Virus record (IMG/VR): IMGVR_UViG_3300025229_000020
Location: 1 to 63,082 of that record
DNA length: 63,082 nt
DNA from: a virus
Direction: 5' to 3' (one strand)
In this document: piece by piece, positions 1-63,082 of the stretch
Position numbering within the stretch: position 1 is the first letter of the stretch
Layout of the letters: each line of letters opens with the position of its first letter
The notes under the pieces: generated by a model
What the model was told of the DNA's origin: nothing
What the model saw: the letters and a program-made list of their open reading frames with translations, nothing else
Databases searched by the model: none
Translations under genes and position numbers: made by a program

Positions 1-127
1 ACAGATTCACTCAATTACGAAATCGTTGAATAGCGGGACAAAAAACAGATTATTTTCTCATTTCACTGCTTTGGTAACAGATCCCATCCTTAATGATGTT
101 TTTTGGGAATTACGGGGAGTTAGAACT
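1..127. repeat. Terminal direct repeat, copy 1 (identical to 62956..63082); circular-closure overlap
   Basis: nt 1-127 are letter-for-letter the last 127 nt of the window; an ORF stays open across the implied junction. Confidence 0.95.
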
Positions 128-1866: not shown

Positions 1867-3309
1867 ATGAATGTTTGGGGGAGCGCAGCAACAGTCCTGG
1901 ACAATTACCTGCAGAACATCGCCCGTGATACAATGATCGATCTATTCGGCGGGGTGCTACTTGGGGGATTGCCGACTGTTCGTTTGGCTGATGGACTTTA
2001 TGTCGTCGCGAAAGGTATCGCCACAGCGTGTGCGTTGACGTATTTGGCACTCAAGGTTCCGGGGTGGGTAAATGATAGGGTCAAGGTGAAGGAACGTCTA
2101 ATTCGGGCATTTATCGCGTCTGGAACCTACGTGGAAAGGCAGCGAAGGGATATCGGTGATGGAAAAATCAAACCGTACCGGATATTTCCGACCATCGAGC
2201 GCGTGTCGATCGCAAGCAACTGCACGACCGTGAATATCCATCTGCCAATGGGGATGGATCCGGCTGTCATCGAGCGAAACGCATGGGTGTTCCAAAATAC
2301 CTTCGGCCCAACCGCGCAGCTTGTGAACGACAAGGCAGGACGATTCCGCCTGCTGATACCGAAGCAACTACCGGCCAAGATAGCTTACGATCTAGAAACA
2401 GCAAAGGCTGCCATGAAGAGAGCAGGGGGCTTTGCACTCTACATTGGGGAGGCGTACAACGGTAGCGTGGCCGTCGATCTAAAGCAAACGCCACATGCCG
2501 GCCTGGTCGGCGTCACTGGATGGGGTAAGTCAACGGCCCTGCGCGTGATCCTCAATACCTGGCTGCAGGTGTACGGCCCGGATCGGCTCCGTCTGTTCCT
2601 TGGTGATCTGAAAATGACCGAGTTTGGTATGTACCGAGGCATTCCTCACATAGAAGGCAGCATCGCTGTCCGGAAGGGGGAAGTCGTGGCAATGCTGGCG
2701 GAAGTACACGAAATCCTTTTGTACAGACAAGAGCAATTCCACGTGGCGGGTGCTGTAGACCTGGACGAATACGAGGAGTTGACCGGCGAGACGCTGCCAT
2801 TCGTCGTGGTTTGCATCGATGAAGTAGCCAGTCTGGAAGGGGAGGCAGTTGCTCATGACATCCTTGAAGAGATCGGGCAGCTGGGACGTAGTTTTGGCAT
2901 CTTCCTCATGCTCTCACAGCAACGGGTTGACCGCGAAGTGATGGACGGCAAATTGAAGAACAATCTGAATGTGCGGATTGCTTACCGAATGAGCGACGAT
3001 ATGAACAGCCGCATGTTTTTGAGTAGCACGGCAGCAGCCGAATTGAACACCAAAGGCCGTTGCTATGTAAAGCAGGCAACGGACATGGTAGAGGTTCAGA
3101 CGCCATGGCTGGCACCGAAGGAAGCACGGCAACAAATTGCCGCGATCAAAAAGCGGTTCACTGGGGTTAAGAAAGCGCCATTGATACCGCCGATCAACCC
3201 GGATGTGCCGCAGCCAGTTGAATTAGGCCGAGAAGAAAGCAATGACCTGCGGGAGCTTTTGAACGCCCTTATGGAAGAACAGGAGGTGCCACCCCATGCG
3301 AGCGCGTGA
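1867..3309 (+). CDS. FtsK/SpoIIIE-family DNA translocase
   Basis: Walker A GVTGWGKST, Walker B VVVCIDEVA, N-terminal hydrophobic segments; RBS GGAGGAGG. Confidence 0.9.
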   Translation: MNVWGSAATVLDNYLQNIARDTMIDLFGGVLLGGLPTVRLADGLYVVAKGIATACALTYLALKVPGWVNDRVKVKERLIRAFIASGTYVERQRRDIGDGKIKPYRIFPTIERVSIASNCTTVNIHLPMGMDPAVIERNAWVFQNTFGPTAQLVNDKAGRFRLLIPKQLPAKIAYDLETAKAAMKRAGGFALYIGEAYNGSVAVDLKQTPHAGLVGVTGWGKSTALRVILNTWLQVYGPDRLRLFLGDLKMTEFGMYRGIPHIEGSIAVRKGEVVAMLAEVHEILLYRQEQFHVAGAVDLDEYEELTGETLPFVVVCIDEVASLEGEAVAHDILEEIGQLGRSFGIFLMLSQQRVDREVMDGKLKNNLNVRIAYRMSDDMNSRMFLSSTAAAELNTKGRCYVKQATDMVEVQTPWLAPKEARQQIAAIKKRFTGVKKAPLIPPINPDVPQPVELGREESNDLRELLNALMEEQEVPPHASA

Positions 3310-3889
3310 CAGAGCAATTCTCCGCGATCTGGAGCGGTTCCGTTGCCTCTCCCGGGACGATGTAATCAAACTTCATTTCAGCGGTGTCAAGGACAGCGTA
3401 AATGCCGCAAATAGAGTCCTCCGCCGGTTGCGCGATCGGGGCGAAGTAGAAGTCATCACCAGCCAATCACCATACGTGTACGCTGTGAAGCCAGCGCCAA
3501 TCAAGCGTGACTCCCAAAAGATCCCTCACTACTTGGAAATTGCCGCGGTCTTTCACCAGATGTGTCGTTTGCGGCAACCTGACCTATTCATTCCGGAACC
3601 CAAATATGGCAAGGGGTTACCGGAACCAGACGCATTTGCCCTCTGGGGGAAACCGATGTTTTTGGAAATACAACGTAATCAGTTCACGCCTGCCATTTGG
3701 TCAGATAAATTTGCCAGGTATCGCACTCTGTACCACCGTGGCGACTGGTCACGGGAACCATGGCAAAACAAACAGACGCCGACCTTCCCCTGGCTGATTA
3801 TCCTAACAGAGAACCGGATCCCGGTTCCAGATGGTCTATCGTTCAAGGTATTTCAAATTAAGAGCATAAAGGAGTTGATCAAAGCATGA
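3296..3889 (+). CDS. Replication-relaxation family protein
   Basis: N-terminus MRARDRAILRDLERFRCLSRDDV is typical of replication-relaxation wHTH proteins that pair with FtsK-like translocases; overlaps the FtsK stop; RBS GGAGGTG. Confidence 0.7.
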   Translation: MRARDRAILRDLERFRCLSRDDVIKLHFSGVKDSVNAANRVLRRLRDRGEVEVITSQSPYVYAVKPAPIKRDSQKIPHYLEIAAVFHQMCRLRQPDLFIPEPKYGKGLPEPDAFALWGKPMFLEIQRNQFTPAIWSDKFARYRTLYHRGDWSREPWQNKQTPTFPWLIILTENRIPVPDGLSFKVFQIKSIKELIKA

Positions 3890-3969
3890 ACACGAGCTGT
3901 GTAAAATGCGGTAAGCCCCAACCTCGCCCGCAGATATGCGATGATTGTCTTGGCAGAGGAGGGCGGTGA
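3886..3969 (+). CDS. 27-aa zinc-ribbon mini-ORF (MNTSCVKCGKPQPRPQICDDCLGRGGR)
   Basis: ATGA start/stop overlap with the upstream gene; CxxC...CxxC; a terminator follows directly. Confidence 0.4.
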   Translation: MNTSCVKCGKPQPRPQICDDCLGRGGR

Positions 3970-3983
3970 CATTTCTCTGTCAT

Positions 3984-4012
3984 ACTCGTCCACGAATGGG
4001 CGAGTTTTTTTG
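3984..4012 (+). terminator. Rho-independent terminator
   Basis: Stem ACTCGTCCA/TGGGCGAGT (one G-U pair), loop CGAA, then a T7 run. Confidence 0.75.
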
Positions 4013-4114
4013 TTCTAAATCGGACAAGTCACACATAATGTCTCAGTAAATGTGTAACACCGTAACTTGTTAACAGTGTTCCTGAGATAACAGCCGAAGA
4101 GAGGTGTCTTTTCG

Positions 4115-4399
4115 ATGCAAATTAGGGTAGGGCAGGGCCAACCGGTGCCTATAAGAAAAGTACGATCAGATAAAAAAATACGAGTCAATTCTTCGCTTTC
4201 TCAGGACACCCATAACAAACTCGTTATGTTGGCCACTAGCTGCGGCTTGACCAAGACAAGCATGCAGGAAAAGATCGTCGAAGCAGTTCTCAATTCACCT
4301 GAATGGGTGAACTTCTTCCAAGATCGTTACAACAAGACCGGCCGATACCGGGTCATTCCGATGAAAGAGAACGGAAAAATCACCTACCTGCTGCCTTGA
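4115..4399 (+). CDS. Hypothetical protein, possible ribbon-helix-helix
   Basis: 94 aa; RVNSSLSQDTHNKLVMLATSCGLTKTSMQEKIVEAVL resembles an Arc/CopG-type beta-alpha-alpha segment. Confidence 0.5.
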   Translation: MQIRVGQGQPVPIRKVRSDKKIRVNSSLSQDTHNKLVMLATSCGLTKTSMQEKIVEAVLNSPEWVNFFQDRYNKTGRYRVIPMKENGKITYLLP

Positions 4400-4597
4400 G
4401 TTGATTCCTCATGATCTTAGCTGCAGTTTGTGCCTTCTTCCAGTTGGAATAACACTTCTGGCACATACCAATTTGCAAACGCCAGGCTCTCCTGGAGCAT
4501 TCAAGTGTGCCACACTCACATCTTTGCACGACTATCCCGACCCTTCCGAATTGTTTCGATGGTATCAGGATTGCCTCATCTGGGAATATTTATACTA

Positions 4598-5425
4598 TCA
4601 GCGGTAAATGTACGGCTCCAGCAGGGGGAATCTGTCAGCTGTAGCACGTTTTAATGCTCCGTAAAAGACACCACAGAAGTTATTGAAATCGCGCTCTTTA
4701 TAAAGCTGCTTGGTTCGTTTCCAAGTATCGGATGCAATCTCCGCAAGCGTAGCATCATTTTGAAGTCCGCAAAGCTTGTCCACTAGCAGAACCTTACCCC
4801 ATAGGCGGAAAGCTACTTGTCCGTCAGCGGTGTCTCTCATGATGGAAGAGGCAAACTCATCTGGCACATTTTTCGGAACCTTCTTCCAAACACGGGAGTT
4901 CGGAATACGTATTTCTTTTCTTACGTCTTTATGATTTTCTTCGGTAGACAACCCAGTTTTAAAAGACACAGTTTCGGTGGCGATACATTGCTCTTCAGGC
5001 ATTGGCGTTGTTGGCGTTTCAGGTTCATTACAATGTGACATTGGCAATGTGCCATTCAACGTGCCATCAGTAGGGGAGGGGAGCTCCCGGAGGTCTTCCA
5101 TCGGACGGATCTGATAGATGTTTGAGCCGCGCTCACCACGTTTTTTTCTCCTGGTGATCCGTGTGATGATTCCGTAGGACTCGAGCTGCTTCACAGCACG
5201 CCAAAAAGTCCGTACGGAGATCCCTAGCTTGGGTGCAAGCGTTTCGGCCTCCGCCCAGGAGACACCAACGACCTTGCAGCTGTACCGAGCCAGTCTCTTT
5301 AGGAGATTAACGGCGGATTCGGTAAGCTCATGCCCATGCGTATACAGGAACCGGCGGACAGTCTTGTCCATGTCAGATACGCTGGCGAAAGTAGCCAACG
5401 ACTGATCAATACTGATTGTATTCAT
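4598..5425 (-). CDS. Winged-helix DNA-binding protein, possible plasmid-type replication initiator
   Basis: 275 aa; wHTH segment LAPKLGISVRTFWRAVKQLESYGIITRI; RBS GGGAGGAG; followed by a non-coding, promoter- and terminator-rich region. Confidence 0.45.
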   Translation of the reverse strand: MNTISIDQSLATFASVSDMDKTVRRFLYTHGHELTESAVNLLKRLARYSCKVVGVSWAEAETLAPKLGISVRTFWRAVKQLESYGIITRITRRKKRGERGSNIYQIRPMEDLRELPSPTDGTLNGTLPMSHCNEPETPTTPMPEEQCIATETVSFKTGLSTEENHKDVRKEIRIPNSRVWKKVPKNVPDEFASSIMRDTADGQVAFRLWGKVLLVDKLCGLQNDATLAEIASDTWKRTKQLYKERDFNNFCGVFYGALKRATADRFPLLEPYIYR

Positions 5426-5980: not shown

Positions 5981-6244
5981 TTAGACTTCGGAGTCGCACT
6001 GTGGATAACTTAATTTGTGTGAAGATTTATAGTCTGTTCTCCCAAGCAAATAATCAATCGATACATCAAAATAGTTCGCGATATCAAGAAGTGTATCGAC
6101 TGTAGGGTATGATTTTTCCGACAAATACAAACTAATTGAAGATTTATGTAATCCTACAGCTTCAGCTAGATCTTTAGCCATTGCATTACTCTGTTCTAAT
6201 AGTAGGCCAAGCCGTTCAGAAAAAATTCTCCTATGTTTTGGCAT
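5981..6244 (-). CDS. XRE-family HTH regulator
   Basis: 87 aa; LGLLLEQSNAMAKDLAEAVGLHKSSISLYLSEKSYPTVDTLLDIANYFDVSIDYLLG is a canonical XRE HTH; RBS GGGGTGA. Confidence 0.85.
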   Translation of the reverse strand: MPKHRRIFSERLGLLLEQSNAMAKDLAEAVGLHKSSISLYLSEKSYPTVDTLLDIANYFDVSIDYLLGRTDYKSSHKLSYPQCDSEV

Positions 6245-6257
6245 ATTATGTCACCCC

Positions 6258-6286
6258 TTGACAGTTGAGTGAGACTCAACTACTAT
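6258..6286 (+). promoter_or_regulatory. Consensus-like promoter with a palindromic operator in its spacer
   Basis: TTGACA (6258-6263), 17 nt, TACTAT (6281-6286). The spacer is GTTGAGT-gag-ACTCAAC. It points antisense into 6342..6596 and towards 6689. Confidence 0.55.
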
Positions 6287-6293
6287 GATTTTA

Positions 6294-6311
6294 GTACATG
6301 ATTTCATGTAC
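6294..6311. promoter_or_regulatory. Palindromic operator-like site
   Basis: GTACATGA-tt-TCATGTAC, 8-bp perfect arms. Confidence 0.5.
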
Positions 6312-6341
6312 ATGAAAGGGCAAGTAGATTCTGAAATAAAT

Positions 6342-6596
6342 CTACTCGCGCCTACTGCTTCGCTCTCTTTTTAGTTCTTCTACCGAAACAACTTCTAATT
6401 CATACATGCTTTCGACAGAGCAACCTAGTACAGCAGAGATGTTGATCGCATTCTCTAACGTCATGATGGCGCGATCATGGGCATAATTGTTAATCTGTTG
6501 CCGAGTCATTCCTACGCGATCAGCTAGTTCTTGCTGACTAAGGTCAGAATTTTTTAGGTGCAGAAGCAGCAGGCAGCGTCCGACTCGAAAAGCCAT
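6342..6596 (-). CDS. XRE-family HTH regulator
   Basis: 84 aa; LSQQELADRVGMTRQQINNYAHDRAIMTLENAINISAVLGCSVESM; RBS AGGAGG. Confidence 0.85.
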   Translation of the reverse strand: MAFRVGRCLLLLHLKNSDLSQQELADRVGMTRQQINNYAHDRAIMTLENAINISAVLGCSVESMYELEVVSVEELKRERSSRRE

Positions 6597-6688
6597 AGCT
6601 GCCTCCTGGGGTTAGTCAGTTAGAACTAATGATATCACAATCAACCAAAATGTGGCAAAGATACATAGGTGGTTAGGAGGAGTCCATA

Positions 6689-7924
6689 ATGACGATTTTG
6701 GTACGCAATATTGCCAACGTAGTTACTGAAGCAGTCGAAAAATCTCAAATGCAGAAAATAAATATTGCAAGAGAGCTTGGGCTTACTCTGCCACAACTTA
6801 GTCGTTATCTTAGCGGAAAACGCCCATTTGACCTGAAATCTTTGGATGGAATAACCGAACTCCTGGGACTATCTAAGGGGTATTTCTATGACGAATACAT
6901 TCAAGATTGCTGGCATGCTCCTCGAAATCGAAATTCACGAATTGAGAACTTCCTCTGGCACACAAAGAGTAACGGGAAAGAGGAATACACAAGTAAGATG
7001 GTCAACCTTCTTTTGGATAGTGGAAAAGGACTAGACGATCTGTACAAAGCAGGTGAGAACTTTTATAAAAATGGTATGAATGACGAGGCGCTTTATTTCT
7101 TCAACTTAGTAATTGAAAATGAACGGAATAGATTAGCAGAATGTCTGGCGTTAAGCTACTATCGCAGGTTTATGATTGTTAGAGATTGGGATATGGACTA
7201 TGCGTTTGAGGCAGCAACGAAACTTGGAGAGCACGTACGAACTTTATCGGGGAAGGTCATGTATGAGGCTTATATCAACATAATGACAATATTCTACGTG
7301 CTTGATAAGTGGGAACACTTGCTTAAATACGGATACGAAGTTAGTTCTGTTATGGAGAGGTCGAAAGATCGAGATTTATTCCTTTATGCCAAATGTCTGT
7401 CTTATCTTGGATTTGCATACAGACACAACAAACAGTATGACAAAGCTTTGGAAACTCACAAAAAATGCGGCCAACTTCCAGGGGAGACCTTTAAAATTTG
7501 GGAGGAGTTAAATTGTTGTGTGGTGCTTCTTGAGTCAGGCCAACAAGAGAAGGTATATGAATTGATCAACCTGACTCTAAAATATAAATCAGAGGCTCCA
7601 AATCACTTAGACCATATTTTTAGCGCCTTTGTCAAAAGAAAAAGTTACGATGAAATGGATTCTTTCCTTCCGCAATTTGCAAATGAAATTAAAGAACTCT
7701 TTGCAAAGAAAGACCCTTATAACAAAAAAAGAGCGATTCGAGTCCGATTACTCCTAGCCGACTTCTATATAAATCAAGGGCGACATGAGGAGGCAGCGTA
7801 TTCAATGAAGACTGCTCTTCATCTAGCCAGACAGCTACGCTTAACGAATCAAGTAGATGAATGTATCAGAATGCTTAACCGATTTGGAAAAAACGATATA
7901 GAACTGATATGTTCAGCAATATAA
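6689..7924 (+). CDS. HTH + TPR receptor of the RRNPP type (AimR/NprR/PlcR-like)
   Basis: 411 aa. N-terminal XRE-type HTH (INIARELGLTLPQLSRYLSGKRPFDLKSLDGITELLG), then at least 5 TPR-like helical pairs (e.g. AGENFYKNGMNDEALYFFNLVI, LGFAYRHNKQYDKALETHKKC, LADFYINQGRHEEAAYSMKTAL). RBS AGGAGGAG. Confidence 0.75.
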   Translation: MTILVRNIANVVTEAVEKSQMQKINIARELGLTLPQLSRYLSGKRPFDLKSLDGITELLGLSKGYFYDEYIQDCWHAPRNRNSRIENFLWHTKSNGKEEYTSKMVNLLLDSGKGLDDLYKAGENFYKNGMNDEALYFFNLVIENERNRLAECLALSYYRRFMIVRDWDMDYAFEAATKLGEHVRTLSGKVMYEAYINIMTIFYVLDKWEHLLKYGYEVSSVMERSKDRDLFLYAKCLSYLGFAYRHNKQYDKALETHKKCGQLPGETFKIWEELNCCVVLLESGQQEKVYELINLTLKYKSEAPNHLDHIFSAFVKRKSYDEMDSFLPQFANEIKELFAKKDPYNKKRAIRVRLLLADFYINQGRHEEAAYSMKTALHLARQLRLTNQVDECIRMLNRFGKNDIELICSAI

Positions 7925-7951
7925 AAAGAGCATCTAACGATGCTCTTTTTC
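7923..7951. terminator. Bidirectional rho-independent terminator
   Basis: A5, stem AGAGCATC, loop TAAC, stem GATGCTCT, T5; lies between the convergent receptor and peptide genes. Confidence 0.85.
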
Positions 7952-7956
7952 ATTTA

Positions 7957-8115
7957 TTACCAGCCGCCACCACTATCTGATGTAGTAACAACTGGCGGTT
8001 TATTTTCATCAATGTCAGGTTTTGGAGCCCAACCACCGCCACTGTCTGCTGACGCTACTGCAGTTACTGAGAATACTGAAAGCACCAACATCAGTGTAAG
8101 AAATGCGTTTTTCAT
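7957..8115 (-). CDS. 52-aa secreted pro-peptide, candidate signalling peptide precursor
   Basis: MKNAFLTLMLVLSVFSVTAVASA / DSGGGWAPKPDIDENKPPVVTTSDSGGGW. Sec-type signal peptide with an AxA site. DSGGGW is present twice (8029-8046 and 7960-7977) in different codons. RBS AAGGA. The internal Met of track ORF 7957..8163 was chosen as the start. Confidence 0.65.
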   Translation of the reverse strand: MKNAFLTLMLVLSVFSVTAVASADSGGGWAPKPDIDENKPPVVTTSDSGGGW

Positions 8116-8132
8116 GCGAATCACATCCTTGT

Positions 8133-8152
8133 TTGTGCTGTATACAGAACAA
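8133..8152. promoter_or_regulatory. 20-bp palindromic operator (family member 1) in the leader of the peptide gene
   Basis: TTGTGCTGTA-TACAGAACAA; same family as the sites at 8958, 8979, 9053, 9074, 9323 and 17600. Confidence 0.65.
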
Positions 8153-8170
8153 GAGTACCACATAATTTTT

Positions 8171-8187
8171 ACATTGTCGACAAATGT
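8171..8187. promoter_or_regulatory. Palindromic site ACATTGTCGACAAATGT
   Basis: Perfect TGTCGACA core with matching flanks; lies between the -35-like TTTTCC and -10-like TAAAAA of a minus-strand promoter candidate for the peptide gene. Confidence 0.45.
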
Positions 8188-8270
8188 CGGAAAATTTTGT
8201 TGCGGTTTCCATTATCTTCACTCATCGACTAATGGAAACTTGCCGTATGATAAAATTGTAAAATACACAA

Positions 8271-8298
8271 TTGTCCAAATCAACATCATGTGGGACAA
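8271..8298. promoter_or_regulatory. Inverted repeat TTGTCC-N16-GGACAA upstream of 8347 gene
   Basis: 6-bp arms overlap the -35 position of a TAAAAT (8300-8305) -10 element that lacks a good -35. This is the layout expected for an activator box. Confidence 0.4.
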
Positions 8299-8346
8299 TT
8301 AAAATAGACATACAAGAACGTTTGTTCTCATCGGAGGGGTTATTTT

Positions 8347-8553
8347 ATGGATGCAACGTTAAAAAACAATATGGATGACAATGTAACTAACTCTGCAGAT
8401 GATAAAGAGAGAAAATGGACAACCCAAACTTTAAACACTTGTTTTTGGATATTTGAATCTGATGAACCAGAAGCACTTGAGCTTAGAGAAAAACTGATAG
8501 CGGTGCTTACGCCAGAGCAAAGAAAGAAAATGGAGGCCATCCTGCAAACGTAG
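8347..8553 (+). CDS. Small acidic hypothetical protein
   Basis: 68 aa; RBS GGAGGGG; divergent from the peptide gene; ends inside a strong terminator. Confidence 0.6.
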   Translation: MDATLKNNMDDNVTNSADDKERKWTTQTLNTCFWIFESDEPEALELREKLIAVLTPEQRKKMEAILQT

Positions 8554-8569
8554 GATAGGCCTCCTTTTT
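8532..8569. terminator. Bidirectional rho-independent terminator
   Basis: GGAGGCCATCCT-gcaaacgt-AGGATaGGCCTCC followed by T5; lies between convergent genes 8347..8553 and 8568..8954. Confidence 0.85.
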
Positions 8570-8954
8570 ACTTTACGCTGTCGATGATCTTCAACCATGA
8601 ATCGATTTGATCATCTGACATTTCTTTTATCAATTCAATTAATCTTTTTCTCTTATCAGAAACGGTTGGATCCTCTAATGCAGAATTAAGGGGATCTATT
8701 CCGTCATCAGAAATAAATCCTGCAGCTTTCATTAGGTCTTCATATGGATAGTCATAGGCCAAAGCTAATTTTCGTAATGTGTCTGGTGATGGAGATATTG
8801 GGCCTTTGCTGCGTGAGCTTTGATTTATTTCTATAGATCGGATGTATGAAAAACTCATACCAGTCTTATCAGCTACCTGACGTAGGGTGAGTTTTTTCTC
8901 TTTTCTTATCTTTTCAAGAAGAGAACCTAATTGATTTCTCATCATCATATCCAC
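8568..8954 (-). CDS. CI-like phage repressor (XRE HTH, no recognisable S24 peptidase domain)
   Basis: 128 aa; KLTLRQVADKTGMSFSYIRSIEIN HTH; divergent from a Cro-like gene across an operator-rich region. The start is probably one of the ATGs at 8942-8948 (RBS AAAGGTGG). Confidence 0.75.
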   Translation of the reverse strand: MDMMMRNQLGSLLEKIRKEKKLTLRQVADKTGMSFSYIRSIEINQSSRSKGPISPSPDTLRKLALAYDYPYEDLMKAAGFISDDGIDPLNSALEDPTVSDKRKRLIELIKEMSDDQIDSWLKIIDSVK

Positions 8955-8957
8955 CTT

Positions 8958-8998
8958 TTGTATTGTTTACAGTACATATTGTACAGTTTGCAGTACAA
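8958..8998. promoter_or_regulatory. Two tandem 20-bp operators (family members 2 and 3)
   Basis: TTGTATTGTT-TACAGTACAT (8958-8977) and TTGTACAGTT-TGCAGTACAA (8979-8998), 21 bp centre to centre. Confidence 0.6.
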
Positions 8999-9044
8999 AT
9001 TTAGAAGAGGAGCATGTGTTCGTGTAGAATTTTGCGTTAAATCG

Positions 9045-9073
9045 TTGACATTATGTTCTGCTAGCAGTACAAT
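9045..9073 (+). promoter_or_regulatory. PR-like early promoter
   Basis: TTGACA (9045-9050), 17 nt, TACAAT (9068-9073). Confidence 0.75.
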
Positions 9074-9093
9074 TTGTGCTGTAGACAGAACTA
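9053..9093. promoter_or_regulatory. Two tandem 20-bp operators (family members 4 and 5) over the PR-like promoter
   Basis: ATGTTCTGCT-AGCAGTACAA (9053-9072) and TTGTGCTGTA-GACAGAACTA (9074-9093), 21 bp apart. Confidence 0.6.
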
Positions 9094-9120
9094 AATGAAT
9101 GAGTATTTGTACATAGATGG

Positions 9121-9423
9121 ATGGTGAATGTAATGAGGAGCAATAAAGTTTGGGAACTTCGGCAAGAGTACGGCGTTACGCAGGAAGAATTAGCATCTGC
9201 ATGTGGAATTAGTCGATCTTCAGTGACTGAGATCGAACGCGGACACACTCCAGCAGGAGACGTTGTGCTTAAAATATCAGCATTTTTCAATAAAGACCCC
9301 CGGTATATTTTCTATGCACGTTCTGTTCTGTTTACAGCACAAGACGTTAAGGCAAAAAAACTTCAAAAGCAAAAGGAGCGAATGCAGGATGACAGCAACA
9401 GAAGCAAATCGTCGACAGGCTGA
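9121..9423 (+). CDS. Cro-like XRE HTH regulator
   Basis: VTQEELASACGISRSSVTEIERGHTPAGDVVLKISAFF; the start may be ATG 9133. Confidence 0.75.
   Translation: MVNVMRSNKVWELRQEYGVTQEELASACGISRSSVTEIERGHTPAGDVVLKISAFFNKDPRYIFYARSVLFTAQDVKAKKLQKQKERMQDDSNRSKSSTG
9323..9342. promoter_or_regulatory. 20-bp operator (family member 6)
   Basis: CTGTTCTGTT-TACAGCACAA, inside the 3' part of the Cro-like CDS. Confidence 0.5.
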
Positions 9424-9574
9424 AATCTGGGCAAGGGATCTGCAACACGAAAACGACTTGATGAGACCCGTATCAAGTGACGATGTATGCCAGGACTTCT
9501 CAGAGCGTGTTTTAGCGTTCTGCGAGCGGTACGGGGTAGATTGTTCGCTAGAACCTGTAGAACGTCCAGAATAA
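9389..9574 (+). CDS. Hypothetical protein
   Basis: 61 aa starting MTATEANRRQ; RBS AAAGGAG 9372-9378; this is the internal start of track ORF 9263..9574. Confidence 0.55.
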   Translation: MTATEANRRQAEIWARDLQHENDLMRPVSSDDVCQDFSERVLAFCERYGVDCSLEPVERPE

Positions 9575-9603
9575 GCCAATAGACGGCGAAAGGGGGATGC
9601 TAG

Positions 9604-9843
9604 ATGAAAGAAGCTTTTGATAAGTTGGATGAGTTGGAAAAGAATCGGGGTTTGATAGCAAAGAGCCTAAAGACAGCGCAGAGTGTGTTGGAGAAAACAA
9701 AGGAAGCCCGTCGCAATGCAGAGTCAACGGAAATCGACGCTCAACGTCTGGTGAATCACATCCAAGACGAATTGAATGAAACTGACAAAGAGATAGGGCG
9801 ACTAATGCAGATCGCTCGGAACGAATTGGGGGGTGACATGTGA
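9604..9843 (+). CDS. Coiled-coil hypothetical protein
   Basis: 79 aa with heptad-rich sequence; RBS AAGGGGGA. Confidence 0.6.
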   Translation: MKEAFDKLDELEKNRGLIAKSLKTAQSVLEKTKEARRNAESTEIDAQRLVNHIQDELNETDKEIGRLMQIARNELGGDM

Positions 9844-10031
9844 TGCTCGACAGATTCGCGCAAGGCTTACCAGATTCACAGGAATCCAAGGTAGTTGAGC
9901 ACTGCGAGGAATGCGGTGGAGAAATTTACGAGGGCCAATCCGTTTGGAAGGCAGGAAGCGATTTCTTCTGCTGTCGTGGTTGTATGCTGACAAATATCGG
10001 AGCTGTGCCAATTACAGCTGGGGAGGAATAA
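9843..10031 (+). CDS. Small Cys-rich (zinc-finger-like) protein
   Basis: CEECGG...CCRGC; start coupled to the upstream stop (ATGTGATG). Confidence 0.55.
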   Translation: MLDRFAQGLPDSQESKVVEHCEECGGEIYEGQSVWKAGSDFFCCRGCMLTNIGAVPITAGEE

Positions 10032-17599: not shown

Positions 17600-17619
17600 T
17601 TGTGCTGTAAATAGCACAA
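17600..17619. promoter_or_regulatory. 20-bp operator (family member 7) in the intergenic region before 17669
   Basis: TTGTGCTGTA-AATAGCACAA overlaps a TTAATG-16-TAAATA promoter-like element. Confidence 0.55.
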
Positions 17620-17668: not shown

Positions 17669-18406
17669 ATGGGACAGCCAGTGTTGAGCAGGGAAAAGGA
17701 AATGCGGCAAGTGTTTCAGGGAGACGAAAAAACTATTCACATCCTCGATCTGCCACCTGAAGAACAAGAAGAATGGGCGATCAAGTATGGAATTGATCTG
17801 GACAAGCTGAGAAACCGCACCACTCCCGCAGAAAAGACGGAGGTTTCAGAGGTAAGTGAACCTCCAAAAGAGCTGACAAAAGAAATATACCTGGAGCTGA
17901 AAGAGCAGCGGATCCGCGACAAGGAAATCGCAGAGCGATTCGGCATCGGGTATCCAGCAGCTATTGGTGAATGGAAGAAAGAGAATGGCTTAAAAGGTTA
18001 CCAGATGAAGCCGAACCCAAAGTTCACTGCCGTACCAAAGGAACGTCCGGAAACTGAAAATAAACCAACAACACCAGATTCGCCGGTTGTAAAAGAGCTC
18101 GAAGAAGCTCTAGTGAGTAAAGACGAGCAGATTTCTAAATACCAATCTTTACTCGACGGTGCGAATAAAGCACGAGTGGAAGCGCAGGCAAAGGCGGAGT
18201 CATTGGAGATTGAGCTTCGCCAATACAAAGCTAAGTGCGAGCCACTTGATCTAAGATTTTCTGTCTCTGAGTTGATGAGCATCGGTGTAACAACAGTCCA
18301 AACATTTGCGGAGTTTCAAATCCTTGCCGAAGTGCTGGGGAAAATGAAAATGCCATGGACGGCTTCGCATGATGGGAGTTGTTTCAACATCCAGGCGGCG
18401 ATATGA
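17669..18406 (+). CDS. Hypothetical protein
   Basis: 245 aa; RBS AGGGAGGG; central HTH-like IRDKEIAERFGIGYPAAIGEW; C-terminal coiled coil. Confidence 0.6.
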   Translation: MGQPVLSREKEMRQVFQGDEKTIHILDLPPEEQEEWAIKYGIDLDKLRNRTTPAEKTEVSEVSEPPKELTKEIYLELKEQRIRDKEIAERFGIGYPAAIGEWKKENGLKGYQMKPNPKFTAVPKERPETENKPTTPDSPVVKELEEALVSKDEQISKYQSLLDGANKARVEAQAKAESLEIELRQYKAKCEPLDLRFSVSELMSIGVTTVQTFAEFQILAEVLGKMKMPWTASHDGSCFNIQAAI

Positions 18407-57583: not shown

Positions 57584-58621
57584 CTATCGGCTACCACGGA
57601 CCATTTCGACCAAACCTCGATCTATTTGATGGTTATGAAGTGGGTGAGATTTCATGGCATCCAGCACCTTACCTTTATCGATCGCGATATAATGCTCCAG
57701 CGTTTGAACGCGGGCATGCCCGGAGATCTCCTTCAGTATGAACAAATCGACTCCCTGCTTATGAAGAAACGTCAGGCAGCTGCGTCGGAGCGCGTGCAGA
57801 CTCAGACCATCCTTGAATACACCTAACCTCTTGGTGTACCCCTTGAACAGCCAATCGATGCCCTTACGCGTGTATGGTTGGCCATATTGCGTCAGAAACA
57901 GCGTTTGGTCGTCAACACCTTGAACAAAAAACTGCCGGCCGCATCTGTACCTGCTGATTCCGGAGCTGCGTTCGCTTTTGCTTGCTTCTTCATAAACGAC
58001 CCCAGTCTGCAGATAGAGCTGCAGGGCGTTGGCCAGTTGGGGGATCATCGGGATAATCCGATCCTTGCCGCCTTTACCGTCACGGACGTGGATGTAATTA
58101 TCTTCGAAATTGACGTCATACGTCTTCAAGCTGACCAACTCGCTGACGCGGATCCCAGTGTACAGGAATGTGGCGAACAACGCATAATCCCTGACTGCGA
58201 ATTTTCCTGTGAGCATGATACCATCCAGCAAGGTCTTTGCCTGCTGCTCACCAAGAGTGATGGGTATGGTGCGTGGGACCTTCATCCCCTGAATATTCTT
58301 GGCGGGATTCTTCACAATGTCGTAGTCGTCGTGGTCCACAAAATATTCGTAGAATGAACGTACCACCGAAATGGCTCTGTTCACAGTCCGCGGGGAAAGT
58401 CCCTGATCCACCAGACTAAACTTGTATTCGCGGATCTCCTGCTGACGCAACTCCAATACATCCCGAGTCGAGAAGTGCTTCATAAACCGTCTCAGATCAC
58501 CCTCGTAGCCGATTAGCGTCTTTGGGCGGGCTCCTCTATCACTTCTCAAGAAAAGCAGGTATTCACGCAAGTAGAGTTCGTTATGGCTGGTCTTTACTAC
58601 CGACAATACGTTTGACTTCAA
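57584..58621 (-). CDS. Tyrosine recombinase (XerC/D-like phage integrase family)
   Basis: N-terminal SAM-like domain (YLREYLLFLRSDRGARPKTLIGYEGDLRRF); GIRVSEL (Arg I); HALRRSCLTFL...GHARVQTLEHY (H-x-x-R, H, Tyr); TTG after GGGGAGG. Confidence 0.9.
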   Translation of the reverse strand: MKSNVLSVVKTSHNELYLREYLLFLRSDRGARPKTLIGYEGDLRRFMKHFSTRDVLELRQQEIREYKFSLVDQGLSPRTVNRAISVVRSFYEYFVDHDDYDIVKNPAKNIQGMKVPRTIPITLGEQQAKTLLDGIMLTGKFAVRDYALFATFLYTGIRVSELVSLKTYDVNFEDNYIHVRDGKGGKDRIIPMIPQLANALQLYLQTGVVYEEASKSERSSGISRYRCGRQFFVQGVDDQTLFLTQYGQPYTRKGIDWLFKGYTKRLGVFKDGLSLHALRRSCLTFLHKQGVDLFILKEISGHARVQTLEHYIAIDKGKVLDAMKSHPLHNHQIDRGLVEMVRGSR

Positions 58622-62738: not shown

Positions 62739-63082
62739 TTACGGAGGCATTAGAACATGAACTTGGATCTCTTCCTGAGGGTGAAGGGGAACGATTGTCA
62801 GGTCTAATAGTTGACTTGATTACAGACATTGATTCAAGAGAAAAAATCTTTGCCTTTCATCAACACACAAGGGGCATGGATTCTGACAAAAAGAATCAAT
62901 TGTTTATACATATTGGCGACTTGCTTCTGGATGCGGACTCACAAGAAAAGCTTTTACAGATTCACTCAATTACGAAATCGTTGAATAGCGGGACAAAAAA
63001 CAGATTATTTTCTCATTTCACTGCTTTGGTAACAGATCCCATCCTTAATGATGTTTTTTGGGAATTACGGGGAGTTAGAACT
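62735..63082 (+). CDS. N-terminal part of the junction-spanning MazF/PemK-domain protein (continues at 128..946 after circularisation)
   Basis: TTG 62735 overlaps the TGA of the upstream gene (cTTGA); RBS GGGGGAG 5 nt upstream; no stop codon before the window end; in frame with 26..946 through the 127-bp repeat. Confidence 0.6.
   Translation, partial: MITEALEHELGSLPEGEGERLSGLIVDLITDIDSREKIFAFHQHTRGMDSDKKNQLFIHIGDLLLDADSQEKLLQIHSITKSLNSGTKNRLFSHFTALVTDPILNDVFWELRGVRT
62956..63082. repeat. Terminal direct repeat, copy 2
   Basis: Identical to nt 1-127. Confidence 0.95.

Follow-up and report, generated by a model that had tools for sequence, protein, structure and literature searches.

We report that a 63,082-nt stretch of viral DNA (IMG/VR record IMGVR_UViG_3300025229_000020, positions 1 to 63,082; the whole of it is referred to here as the window) probably carries a phage-borne, RRNPP-type peptide communication module that is distantly related to the Alo systems and built like arbitrium. 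Judged from comparison of sequences, the module is well supported as a communication system and unproven as an arbiter between lysis and lysogeny. It consists of a gene for a receptor with an N-terminal helix-turn-helix (HTH) and a tetratricopeptide repeat (TPR) superhelix (6689..7924, + strand), a convergent gene for a predicted secreted precursor that contains the hexapeptide DSGGGW twice (7957..8115, - strand), and a small gene (8347..8553, + strand). The module stands beside a CI/Cro lysis-lysogeny switch, and an operator link to immunity can be seen in its DNA. The element that carries it is a temperate phage of Brevibacillus, probably of the phage-plasmid kind. An earlier note, made from the letters of the window alone, had proposed an RRNPP-type receptor and a two-hexapeptide pro-peptide as a candidate phage communication system, and the related loci described below strengthen that proposal considerably.

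A precursor with a doubled hexapeptide

The DNA next to all retrievable receptor homologues was read for a peptide gene. The comparison set comprised 16 distinct related loci and the window, from Brevibacillus phages, phage-plasmids and prophages with receptor identity down to 24%; percentages attached to loci are receptor identities to the window. The peptide gene of the window encodes 52 amino acids plus a stop codon, arranged as a signal peptide, DSGGGW, a 17-residue spacer and DSGGGW. Its ATG has a Shine-Dalgarno sequence (AAGGATG) 8 nt upstream, and from this start the precursor reads MKNAFLTLMLVLSVFSVTAVASA followed by DSGGGWAPKPDIDENKPPVVTTSDSGGGW, with the predicted cut between the two. 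The predicted Sec signal peptide MKNAFLTLMLVLSVFSVTAVASA (8047..8115, - strand) has a lysine as its second residue, 17 residues of hydrophobic core and the motif A-S-A; the call is based on the pattern of n-, h- and c-regions and on an AxA-type motif in all homologues. The N-terminal DSGGGW (8029..8046, - strand) is coded GACAGTGGCGGTGGTTGG and begins at the predicted signal-peptidase cut, and the C-terminal DSGGGW (7960..7977, - strand) is coded GATAGTGGTGGCGGCTGG and ends at the stop codon. Direct reading of the two codings gives four differences, all synonymous. The earlier note had thus described the convergent 52-residue open reading frame (ORF), its Sec-type signal peptide, and the positions and codings of both hexapeptides correctly, the signal peptide as a prediction.

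A precursor with a signal-peptide-like N-terminus was found in the same position in 16/16 related loci examined, and in 14 of them, as in the window, the hexapeptide is doubled, the first six residues of the pro-region being identical to the last six. Convergent precursors of this type accompany receptors with identities of 63% (L012/L013/L021, DSGPGW-APIVTTK-DSGPGW), 56% (L003, the HD3.3A plasmid, DNGPKW twice), 53% (L009, DSGPEW twice), 52% (L014, DNGPRW twice), 51% (L004-6, DSGGGW twice), 50% (L002, DNGPKW and DNGPRW), 49% (L007/8, DNGGGW twice; L001, GSGIGW twice) and 44% (L015, DGTPRW twice). Precursors encoded on the same strand as the receptor occur in phage Emery (gp61, 34%, HGGIGW-ISGDIKPF-HGGIGW) and, unannotated, in the DP1.3A plasmid (34%, EDGPGW twice) and a B. 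borstelensis plasmid (26%, DIGERP twice). The set thereby contains 11 hexapeptide variants. The doubling is far beyond chance, and 14 related loci show it again with other residues.

The two copies co-vary between loci, with a conservative K/R exchange in L002 as the sole mismatch. Of the 18 nucleotides that code for a copy, 1-5 differ between the two copies of a locus, all synonymously apart from that exchange. Because the copies differ synonymously and change together, selection acts on both at the peptide level, and recent duplication or gene conversion cannot account for the repeat; the claim that it is maintained as peptide had been made from the window only and now extends to the related loci. 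Copy-to-copy identity ends exactly at six residues in nearly all loci. In every homologue an (A/V)-x-A motif at the end of the hydrophobic N-terminus directly precedes the first hexapeptide, and the second copy abuts the stop codon. The spacer between the copies measures 7-25 residues and has no common motif; in the close pairs L007/L008 and L004/L005 the spacer differs and the hexapeptides never do.

Deeper relatives have a single C-terminal copy (...DSFGPGW in L016, ...SFGEGW in L019, ...SVGEGW in L025, and Paenibacillus Alo-type loci), and some of these C-termini end in GxGW. Given these single-copy relatives and the canonical Alo loci, the C-terminal hexapeptide is identified as the ancestral signal and the 'bookend' duplication as derived within the phage-associated clade.

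The flanks of the hexapeptides are semi-conserved. In the precursors compared for this purpose (window, L012, L003, L009, L014, L002, L007, L015, L017 and L018), [VI]-T-[TP]-x immediately precedes the C-terminal copy, and the N-terminal one is immediately followed by [AS]-P, in many cases a run of prolines; protease recognition or exopeptidase-stop signals are possible roles.

Peptide genes of this type are often mis-annotated. In L012 (4265..4432) and L015 (1816..1914), the JGI or Logan ORF that covers the gene lies on the wrong strand, and in RefSeq the gene is left without annotation both in the DP1.3A plasmid (L017 3767..3931) and in the B. borstelensis plasmid (L018 3814..3960). Annotation-based surveys will therefore miss such genes. 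Several of them (L009, L014, L002 and L001) have TTG, GTG or CTG-like starts.

A receptor of the Alo lineage

The receptor gene encodes 411 amino acids with an N-terminal HTH and a TPR superhelix. Several Pfam TPR families match it above their cut-offs (TPR_2 at 32 bits against 27, TPR_12 at 31.4 against 30.1, as well as TPR_6 and TPR_14), and residues 21-65 match HTH_3 at 22 bits, borderline against a cut-off of 23 (E=1.7e-4). PHROG repressor and regulator families match residues 7-72, and the HTH call agrees across tools. An AlphaFold2 (AF2) model is an all-helical repeat of 24 helices with a mean predicted confidence (pLDDT) of 89.5. The receptor also has an invariant block (141-217). Foldseek searches with this model placed generic TPR proteins at the top and returned full-length matches to PlcR (2qfc, E=3.4e-4) and AimR (5zw5/6jg9, E=7.5e-4). 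The HTH-TPR reading of the earlier note stands on these results, and its proposed profile and structure check of the TPR fold was positive by both Pfam and Foldseek, with PlcR and AimR among the matches at low template-modelling (TM) scores. Its assignment to an AimR/NprR/PlcR architecture holds at the level of the fold; in sequence, however, the closest family is AloR of Paenibacillaceae.

A word-based search returned 11 close receptor relatives, and an exhaustive profile search returned 369 cluster representatives at E<=0.001, 41 of them at E<=1e-30. Searching plasmids by tblastn gave a tail of Paenibacillus and Brevibacillus HTH regulators with 19-25% identity. Among the proteins matched was AIG28940 of pBRLA33, to which the receptor family profile (A1) aligns over the full length (E=4.9e-41) and which is 23% identical to the receptor by tblastn (89% of the query, E=2e-16). 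AIG28940 is listed as a member of subfamily AloR, 45% identical to AloR13 (Bernard et al. 2023 supplement, PMC10075063); the link to AloR runs through this AloR13 homologue as a proxy for AloR13 itself. A single strong match to the receptor came from the viral library, a 425-aa protein with 31% identity that, to judge from its length, is probably gp60 of Emery. We conclude from these comparisons that the receptor is of RRNPP type, on a distant branch of the Alo lineage, and that it is like AimR in fold and predicted role, not in sequence. Membership of RRNPP_detector 'cluster 8' was considered and rejected, the family profile leaving the receptor of that cluster (AIG28938) unmatched. RRNPP_detector seeks receptors of 250-500 aa that carry an HTH and repeats of the TPR or a TPR-like kind, next to an ORF of 10-100 aa for a Sec-type pro-peptide; here the receptor has 411 aa and TPRs by Pfam, AF2 and Foldseek, its HTH scores just short of the Pfam cut-off, and the adjacent ORF has 52 aa, with export predicted from its pattern.

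We also observed that receptors only 50-58% identical can have the same peptide: DSGGGW is common to the window and L004-6, and DNGPKW to L003 and L002. The sharing points to possible cross-talk between different phages or to a small usable sequence space.

Gene order and the inverted peptide cassette

Receptor and peptide genes of the window converge on a bidirectional intrinsic terminator (7923..7950, both strands), a perfect 12-bp stem (AAAAAGAGCATC/GATGCTCTTTTT) with a 4-nt loop and flanking A- and T-runs, as the earlier note had indicated. An equivalent hairpin lies between the two genes in L012, L009, L002, L015 and L016. The L004-6 type of DSGGGW locus (L004 4906..5149, L005 3784..4027, L006 4911..5154) is different: its 431-aa receptor ORF (P0006) extends ~30 nt into the convergent peptide gene at the 3' end of the latter, and, unlike in the window, no terminator hairpin separates the two genes.

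In phage Emery, the DP1.3A plasmid and the B. borstelensis plasmid, receptor, peptide and small gene follow one another on one strand. The order in Emery is gp60-gp61-terminator-inverted repeat-gp63, which has the gene order and operator placement of arbitrium, whereas the window does not. The earlier statement that the module is 'not arranged like arbitrium' is accordingly right for the subclade of the window but wrong for these three relatives with one-strand order. From the co-directional order in the deeper relatives it follows that the clade of the window carries an inverted peptide cassette within an arbitrium-like layout.

The control region between peptide gene and small gene

The intergenic DNA between peptide gene and small gene was aligned for seven loci (alignment A2). 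The candidate receptor operator within it is GTTTCCATTA-N15-TAATGGAAAC (8205..8239), with perfect 10-nt arms and a length across loci of 33-35 bp; the repeat is unique in the 63-kb window. Its TTTCC/GGAAA cores are invariant in 7/7 aligned loci and also occur between the peptide and small genes of Emery and L016. The repeat stays constant across loci with differing CI proteins and CI operators, and its arms become CCAATA/TATTGG-, CCATTA/..TTGG- or CCCAAA/..TGGG-type as the recognition helix goes from QLSR(Y/N)LSG to VFDRW.. or DFCRW... It is assigned to the receptor because it tracks the recognition helix and not the type of CI. It always ends 6 nt before the -10 hexamer of the small gene (TATGAT; TATAAT in Emery, TATATT in L016); in the window the -10 region is TATGATAAAAT (8246..8256, + strand), where TATGATA is invariant in A2 and no -35 element is conserved; the transcription starts assumed here are ~8258 on the + strand and, for the peptide gene, ~8145 on the - strand. 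In Emery the repeat sits past the terminator of the peptide gene and ahead of gp63, where arbitrium has its AimR operator. On the strength of this alignment, 8205..8239 is the best candidate for the receptor binding site and the small gene the best candidate for its target.

The second well-conserved element is a 20-bp palindrome, TTGTGCTGTATACAGAACAA (8133..8152), of the CI/Cro operator type, which lies near the ribosome-binding site of the peptide gene and abuts the putative -10 of its promoter. This -10, TGGTACTCT (8152..8160, - strand), is an extended TGnTAnnnT-like element proposed from consensus, and a similar element immediately upstream of the palindrome could be recognised by eye in most aligned loci. 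Sites related to the palindrome occur at 8958, 8979 and 9074, in the CI/Cro intergenic region, and at 9323 and 17600, six in total against 0.15 expected. The CI/Cro intergenic control region (8958..9093) holds the first three of these operators and a promoter, TTGACA-17-TACAAT (9045..9073), on the Cro side, directly 3' of whose -10 an operator is placed; the geometry at the peptide gene is identical. The palindrome is therefore assigned to the immunity repressor (or Cro). In L012, L014, L002, L003 and L016 the peptide-proximal palindrome likewise resembles the CI/Cro operators of its own locus, which vary among loci. On these matches, peptide gene and lytic promoter would be regulated together. 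Of the other two copies, one (17600..17619) is in the gap that precedes the ORF at 17669..18406 and one (9323..9342) is inside the Cro-like gene; they may mark further repressor-controlled promoters.

These two elements, the best conserved in the region, were missing from the earlier note, which had listed three other repeats as control sites. All three are present: ACATTGTCGACAAATGT (8171..8187), the inverted repeat ATTGTCC-N16-GGACAAT with its core TTGTCC-N16-GGACAA (8270..8299) in the leader of the small gene, and AGAACgtttGTTCT (AGAAC-gttt-GTTCT, 8315..8328) just upstream of the Shine-Dalgarno sequence of that gene. The likely operator of the receptor, however, is the repeat at 8205..8239 and none of these three. 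The repeat at 8270..8299 is unique in the window (0.04 expected) and is kept in L012, L009, L014 and L002, degenerate in L015 and absent from L003. GAAC-N3/4-GTTC is kept in A2 and in the distant DP1.3A locus (L017 ~4118..4135). A riboswitch or attenuator role for the leader repeats was considered and found unsupported, RNA folding against shuffled sequences giving z=0.04.

The small gene encodes 68 amino acids, as the earlier note also had it. It stands behind a GGAGGGG Shine-Dalgarno sequence, occupies the position of aimX and is the probable regulated target. An ORF of 38-69 aa with a strong Shine-Dalgarno sequence occupies the same spot in most loci examined, and ten aligned small proteins have a weak two-helix core in common, (W/L)(T/S)xE..L...PE..L..K..L. 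By its position, and by analogy with aimX, the gene may encode a pro-lytic effector. A Spo0E-like identity was rejected, there being no Pfam or NCBIfam match.

A possible mechanism and the points against it

A working model of the module can be outlined as follows. The precursor would be exported via Sec and cut after ASA, and one cut after the first W and another before the last D would release two DSGGGW per precursor, each copy having one ready-made end in the signal-peptidase site or the stop codon. The peptide would then be re-imported, presumably by Opp, and would bind in the TPR groove of the receptor. When peptide is scarce, a peptide-free receptor dimer would activate the 68-aa gene from DNA of the type GTTTCCATTA-N15-TAATGGAAC (8205..8239), a site that overlaps the -35 region of the promoter, which has no -35 element. 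Lytic growth would be favoured either by the protein encoded there or by its transcription heading for the convergent CI-like gene. Peptide binding would release or inactivate the receptor and shift the decision to the side of lysogeny, probably a plasmid-like prophage state here, and the repressor, once established, would shut off peptide synthesis. With a CI/Cro-type operator on the peptide promoter, placed as it is at the lytic promoter, most of the signal would be produced in the absence of repressor, at infection or induction. The sign of regulation, activation or repression, is the least secure step.

We put forward only tentatively, as somewhat less likely than otherwise, the joint reading in which all three peculiarities hold together: a bookend precursor for two signals, a CI/Cro-gated signal that reports infection or induction, and an inverted cassette that couples signal and effector output. 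If it is right, the bookend design needs one extra proteolytic cut per copy, the inversion has put the promoters of peptide and effector back-to-back around a single receptor operator, and at least 11 peptide dialects define cross-talk groups among Brevibacillus phages.

Several results weigh against a peptide-sensing switch of this kind. The TM-scores of the PlcR and AimR matches are low (0.25-0.43) and rank under generic TPR proteins, those of AimR 5zw5/6jg9 against the receptor model being 0.38-0.43. Sequence and profile searches of the PDB gave designed TPR proteins and HTH fragments and 0 solved RRNPP receptors, and no AimR chain came up at thresholds as loose as E<=10, whether the query was the single receptor sequence or the profile. 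Among the few, phylogenetically confounded receptor sequences, no alignment column convincingly tracks the peptide residues, the kind of receptor-peptide covariation that the earlier note had proposed to look for; the two hexapeptide copies do co-vary, and their adjacency to the receptor is kept. Other HTH proteins of the region could bind the repeat at 8205..8239, and the promoter assignments rest on consensus only. The small gene belongs to no Pfam, PHROG or NCBIfam family, a word-based search with the 68-aa protein returned only itself, and mimicry of the C-terminal domain of CI by the small protein, in the manner of SinI, was unsupported (hhalign probability 0.8%).

An alternative that we consider unlikely is a genuine receptor-peptide quorum sensor that steers host physiology (e.g. 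sporulation) or plasmid maintenance and not the choice between lysis and lysogeny. The nearest characterised relatives are Alo receptors, many of them followed by spo0E-like genes (PMC7425212), a Spo0E gene lies downstream of the receptor in one locus (L023), Bernard et al. propose host-manipulating quorum sensing by phages, and relatives of the module are carried as plasmids. A role of this sort has been suggested for Alo systems that neighbour spo0E-like genes and for several RRNPP systems of phages. The small gene, however, has no Spo0E, AbrB or Rap similarity, an immunity operator sits on the peptide promoter, and the module is always beside CI/Cro in phage and phage-plasmid relatives (receptor identity of at least ~24%).

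Very unlikely, in our estimate, is a secreted product that is something other than the ligand of the receptor, such as an antimicrobial, an exclusion factor or a peptide that acts at the surface and whose two ends have a structural role, with an HTH-TPR protein that works without peptide or with another ligand. The lack of clear positions for receptor-peptide specificity and the pairing of DSGGGW with receptors ~50% identical would fit such a product. It is harder to reconcile with the adjacency of receptor and peptide genes, kept in two orientations and down to 24% receptor identity, or with hexapeptides that are the sole conserved part of the precursor and have the size and position of known RRNPP signals. 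Single-copy relatives retain just the C-terminal hexapeptide, and the receptor has homology to AloR, for which the neighbouring peptide is known to be a signal.

Least probable of the three is an active signal other than the hexapeptide, which might be longer (SDSGGGW, or all 29 residues of the pro-peptide, gripped at both ends by a receptor dimer) or else internal and of the KPDI type: the semi-conserved flanks could be part of a signal and NprX of the NprR/NprX system lies internal to its precursor, but the internal KPDI/NprX-like signal raised in the earlier note is excluded by spacers conserved neither in motif nor in length (7-25 aa) between hexapeptides that are kept, copy identity stops at six residues in nearly every locus, and a bivalent whole pro-peptide is hard to square with the 7-aa spacer of L012 and the single-copy relatives. 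A hexapeptide-sensing communication module thus remains the reading that we prefer.

Relation to known systems

The module resembles the Alo systems (Voichek et al. 2020, PMC7425212) in receptor homology and in host family, Paenibacillaceae, in the pairing of an HTH-TPR receptor with a Sec-type pro-peptide that ends in a Gly-rich hexapeptide, and in a small regulatory gene directly downstream whose expression is the proposed output. One such peptide, AloP13 (SHGRGG), changed transcription in P. polymyxa (PMC7425212). It differs in that receptor identity is ~19-25%, under the 30% clustering threshold of RRNPP_detector, and in that Alo systems are chromosomal whereas the module of the window lies on a temperate phage or phage-plasmid by CI/Cro. 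The clade of the window doubles the hexapeptide where the canonical Alo loci inspected (Paenibacillus) have a single C-terminal copy; aloR and aloP form a two-gene operon on one strand where the peptide gene of the window is inverted and behind a terminator; and the downstream gene of the window is not spo0E-like.

With arbitrium of Bacillus phages (Erez et al. 2017, Stokar-Avihail et al. 2019), the module has in common a phage-encoded HTH-TPR receptor with a secreted hexapeptide precursor, a single long-spacer inverted-repeat operator between peptide and small gene (directly so in Emery), a location in the lysis-lysogeny control region, and many 'dialects' among related phages. Unlike arbitrium, it has no AimR sequence homology, the match being one of fold alone (E=7.5e-4, TM ~0.4), two peptide copies per precursor, a peptide gene convergent with the receptor gene, and an adjoining classical CI/Cro pair with a CI/Cro-type operator on the peptide promoter.

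Precursors with more than one identical mature peptide are known as 'chatterers' (Felipe-Ruiz et al. 2022, PMC9765709), and such repeated pheromones occur in the AimR, NprR, PlcR and Rap subfamilies, prophages included (PMC9765709). Those precursors are atypically long and sporadic within their families, in contrast to precursors of the type found in the window, which have normal length, and to the clade of the window, in which exactly two copies at the extremities are fixed across 24-63% receptor identity.

Phage RRNPP systems (arbitrium and the RRNPP_detector surveys), the Alo family and repeated pheromones are thus already known. What appears to be new is the two-copy bookend precursor fixed across a clade, the inversion of the peptide cassette that yields divergent promoters around one operator, and the placing of an immunity operator on the signal gene. 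We found no description of the receptor family, the hexapeptides or the architecture in the literature, where they may sit unremarked in large survey tables; the hexapeptide strings were found neither in papers nor in the searched part of the supplements of PMC10075063, which likewise lacks phage Emery and the relevant protein accessions, and RRNPP_detector may have listed them before.

Experimentally characterised peptide communication of phages is essentially that of arbitrium in Bacillus phages. If our reading holds, the module extends it to Brevibacillus phages and phage-plasmids through an Alo-like lineage so far studied on chromosomes, and provides a natural series of at least 11 receptor-peptide pairs for the evolution of specificity. 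The two copies must change together and therefore form an internal control for which residues matter. The wiring also makes predictions, namely an operator over a -35-less promoter upstream of a small effector gene and a repressor-gated signal gene.

A peptide gene convergent with its receptor gene reportedly also occurs in the group III Rgg/SHP loci of streptococci. The peptides of those chromosomal systems are said to be single, hydrophobic and not exported by Sec, and the receptors to be unrelated in sequence.

The element and neighbouring genes

The first 127 bases of the window (1..127) are identical to the last 127 (62956..63082), and the assembly is therefore circular (or terminally redundant), with 62,955 bp, and represents a complete element. 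It encodes a terminase, portal and head morphogenesis proteins, a tail sheath, a tape measure, a DnaB-type helicase and a tyrosine recombinase/integrase. Relatives of the receptor are found in Brevibacillus viral contigs in IMG/VR, two genomes, the sequenced temperate phage Emery, and plasmids. Among the latter are Brevibacillus 'plasmids' of 44-64 kb with the same gene order (CP085875, CP085877, CP150492), one of which is also an IMG/VR viral genome. The assignment to a Brevibacillus temperate phage, probably a phage-plasmid, follows from the phage genes, the circularity and the relatives, which are all from Brevibacillus. Megablast of the region gave 0 matches in phage and plasmid collections, and more distant queries, run against metagenome and viral contigs, yielded hardly any further loci.

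The module lies between two XRE genes on one side and the CI-like/Cro-like pair on the other, in the positions named in the earlier note. One XRE gene (5981..6244) lies upstream of the receptor; the other (6342..6596, - strand, HTH_3 41.9 bits) is divergent from it and has equivalents in L014, L016, Emery and the plasmids. The CI-like HTH repressor (8568..8954, - strand, 126-128 aa) matches HTH_3 at 44.6 bits, HTH_19 and PHROG transcriptional repressor families, and the Cro-like HTH regulator (9121..9423, + strand, 100 aa) matches HTH_3 at 54.8 bits. The module is directly beside such a pair in all phage and phage-plasmid relatives with receptor identity of at least ~24%. Between the small gene and the convergent CI-like gene is a hairpin with 12-nt arms that are 92% complementary (8527..8569), with stronger counterparts in L012, L009, L014, L002, L015 and Emery.

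In some relatives the module may be associated with a second, Agr-like signalling component that the window does not have. Phage Emery encodes an AgrB-family protein, gp55 (L010 2257..2775), ~1.2 kb upstream of the receptor, and a LytTR/response-regulator gene lies directly upstream of the receptor in HD3.3A (L011 4120..4869), DP1.3A (L017 1521..2258) and the B. borstelensis plasmid (L018 1596..2351).

Elsewhere in the window, 1867..5425 and 57584..58621 hold genes for an FtsK/SpoIIIE-like protein, for two proteins similar to replication initiators (phrog_2190; HTH_36/phrog_1835) and for a tyrosine recombinase. The regulatory region (6001..10000) has a G+C content of 0.39-0.41, below that of the replication and structural parts (0.45-0.53).

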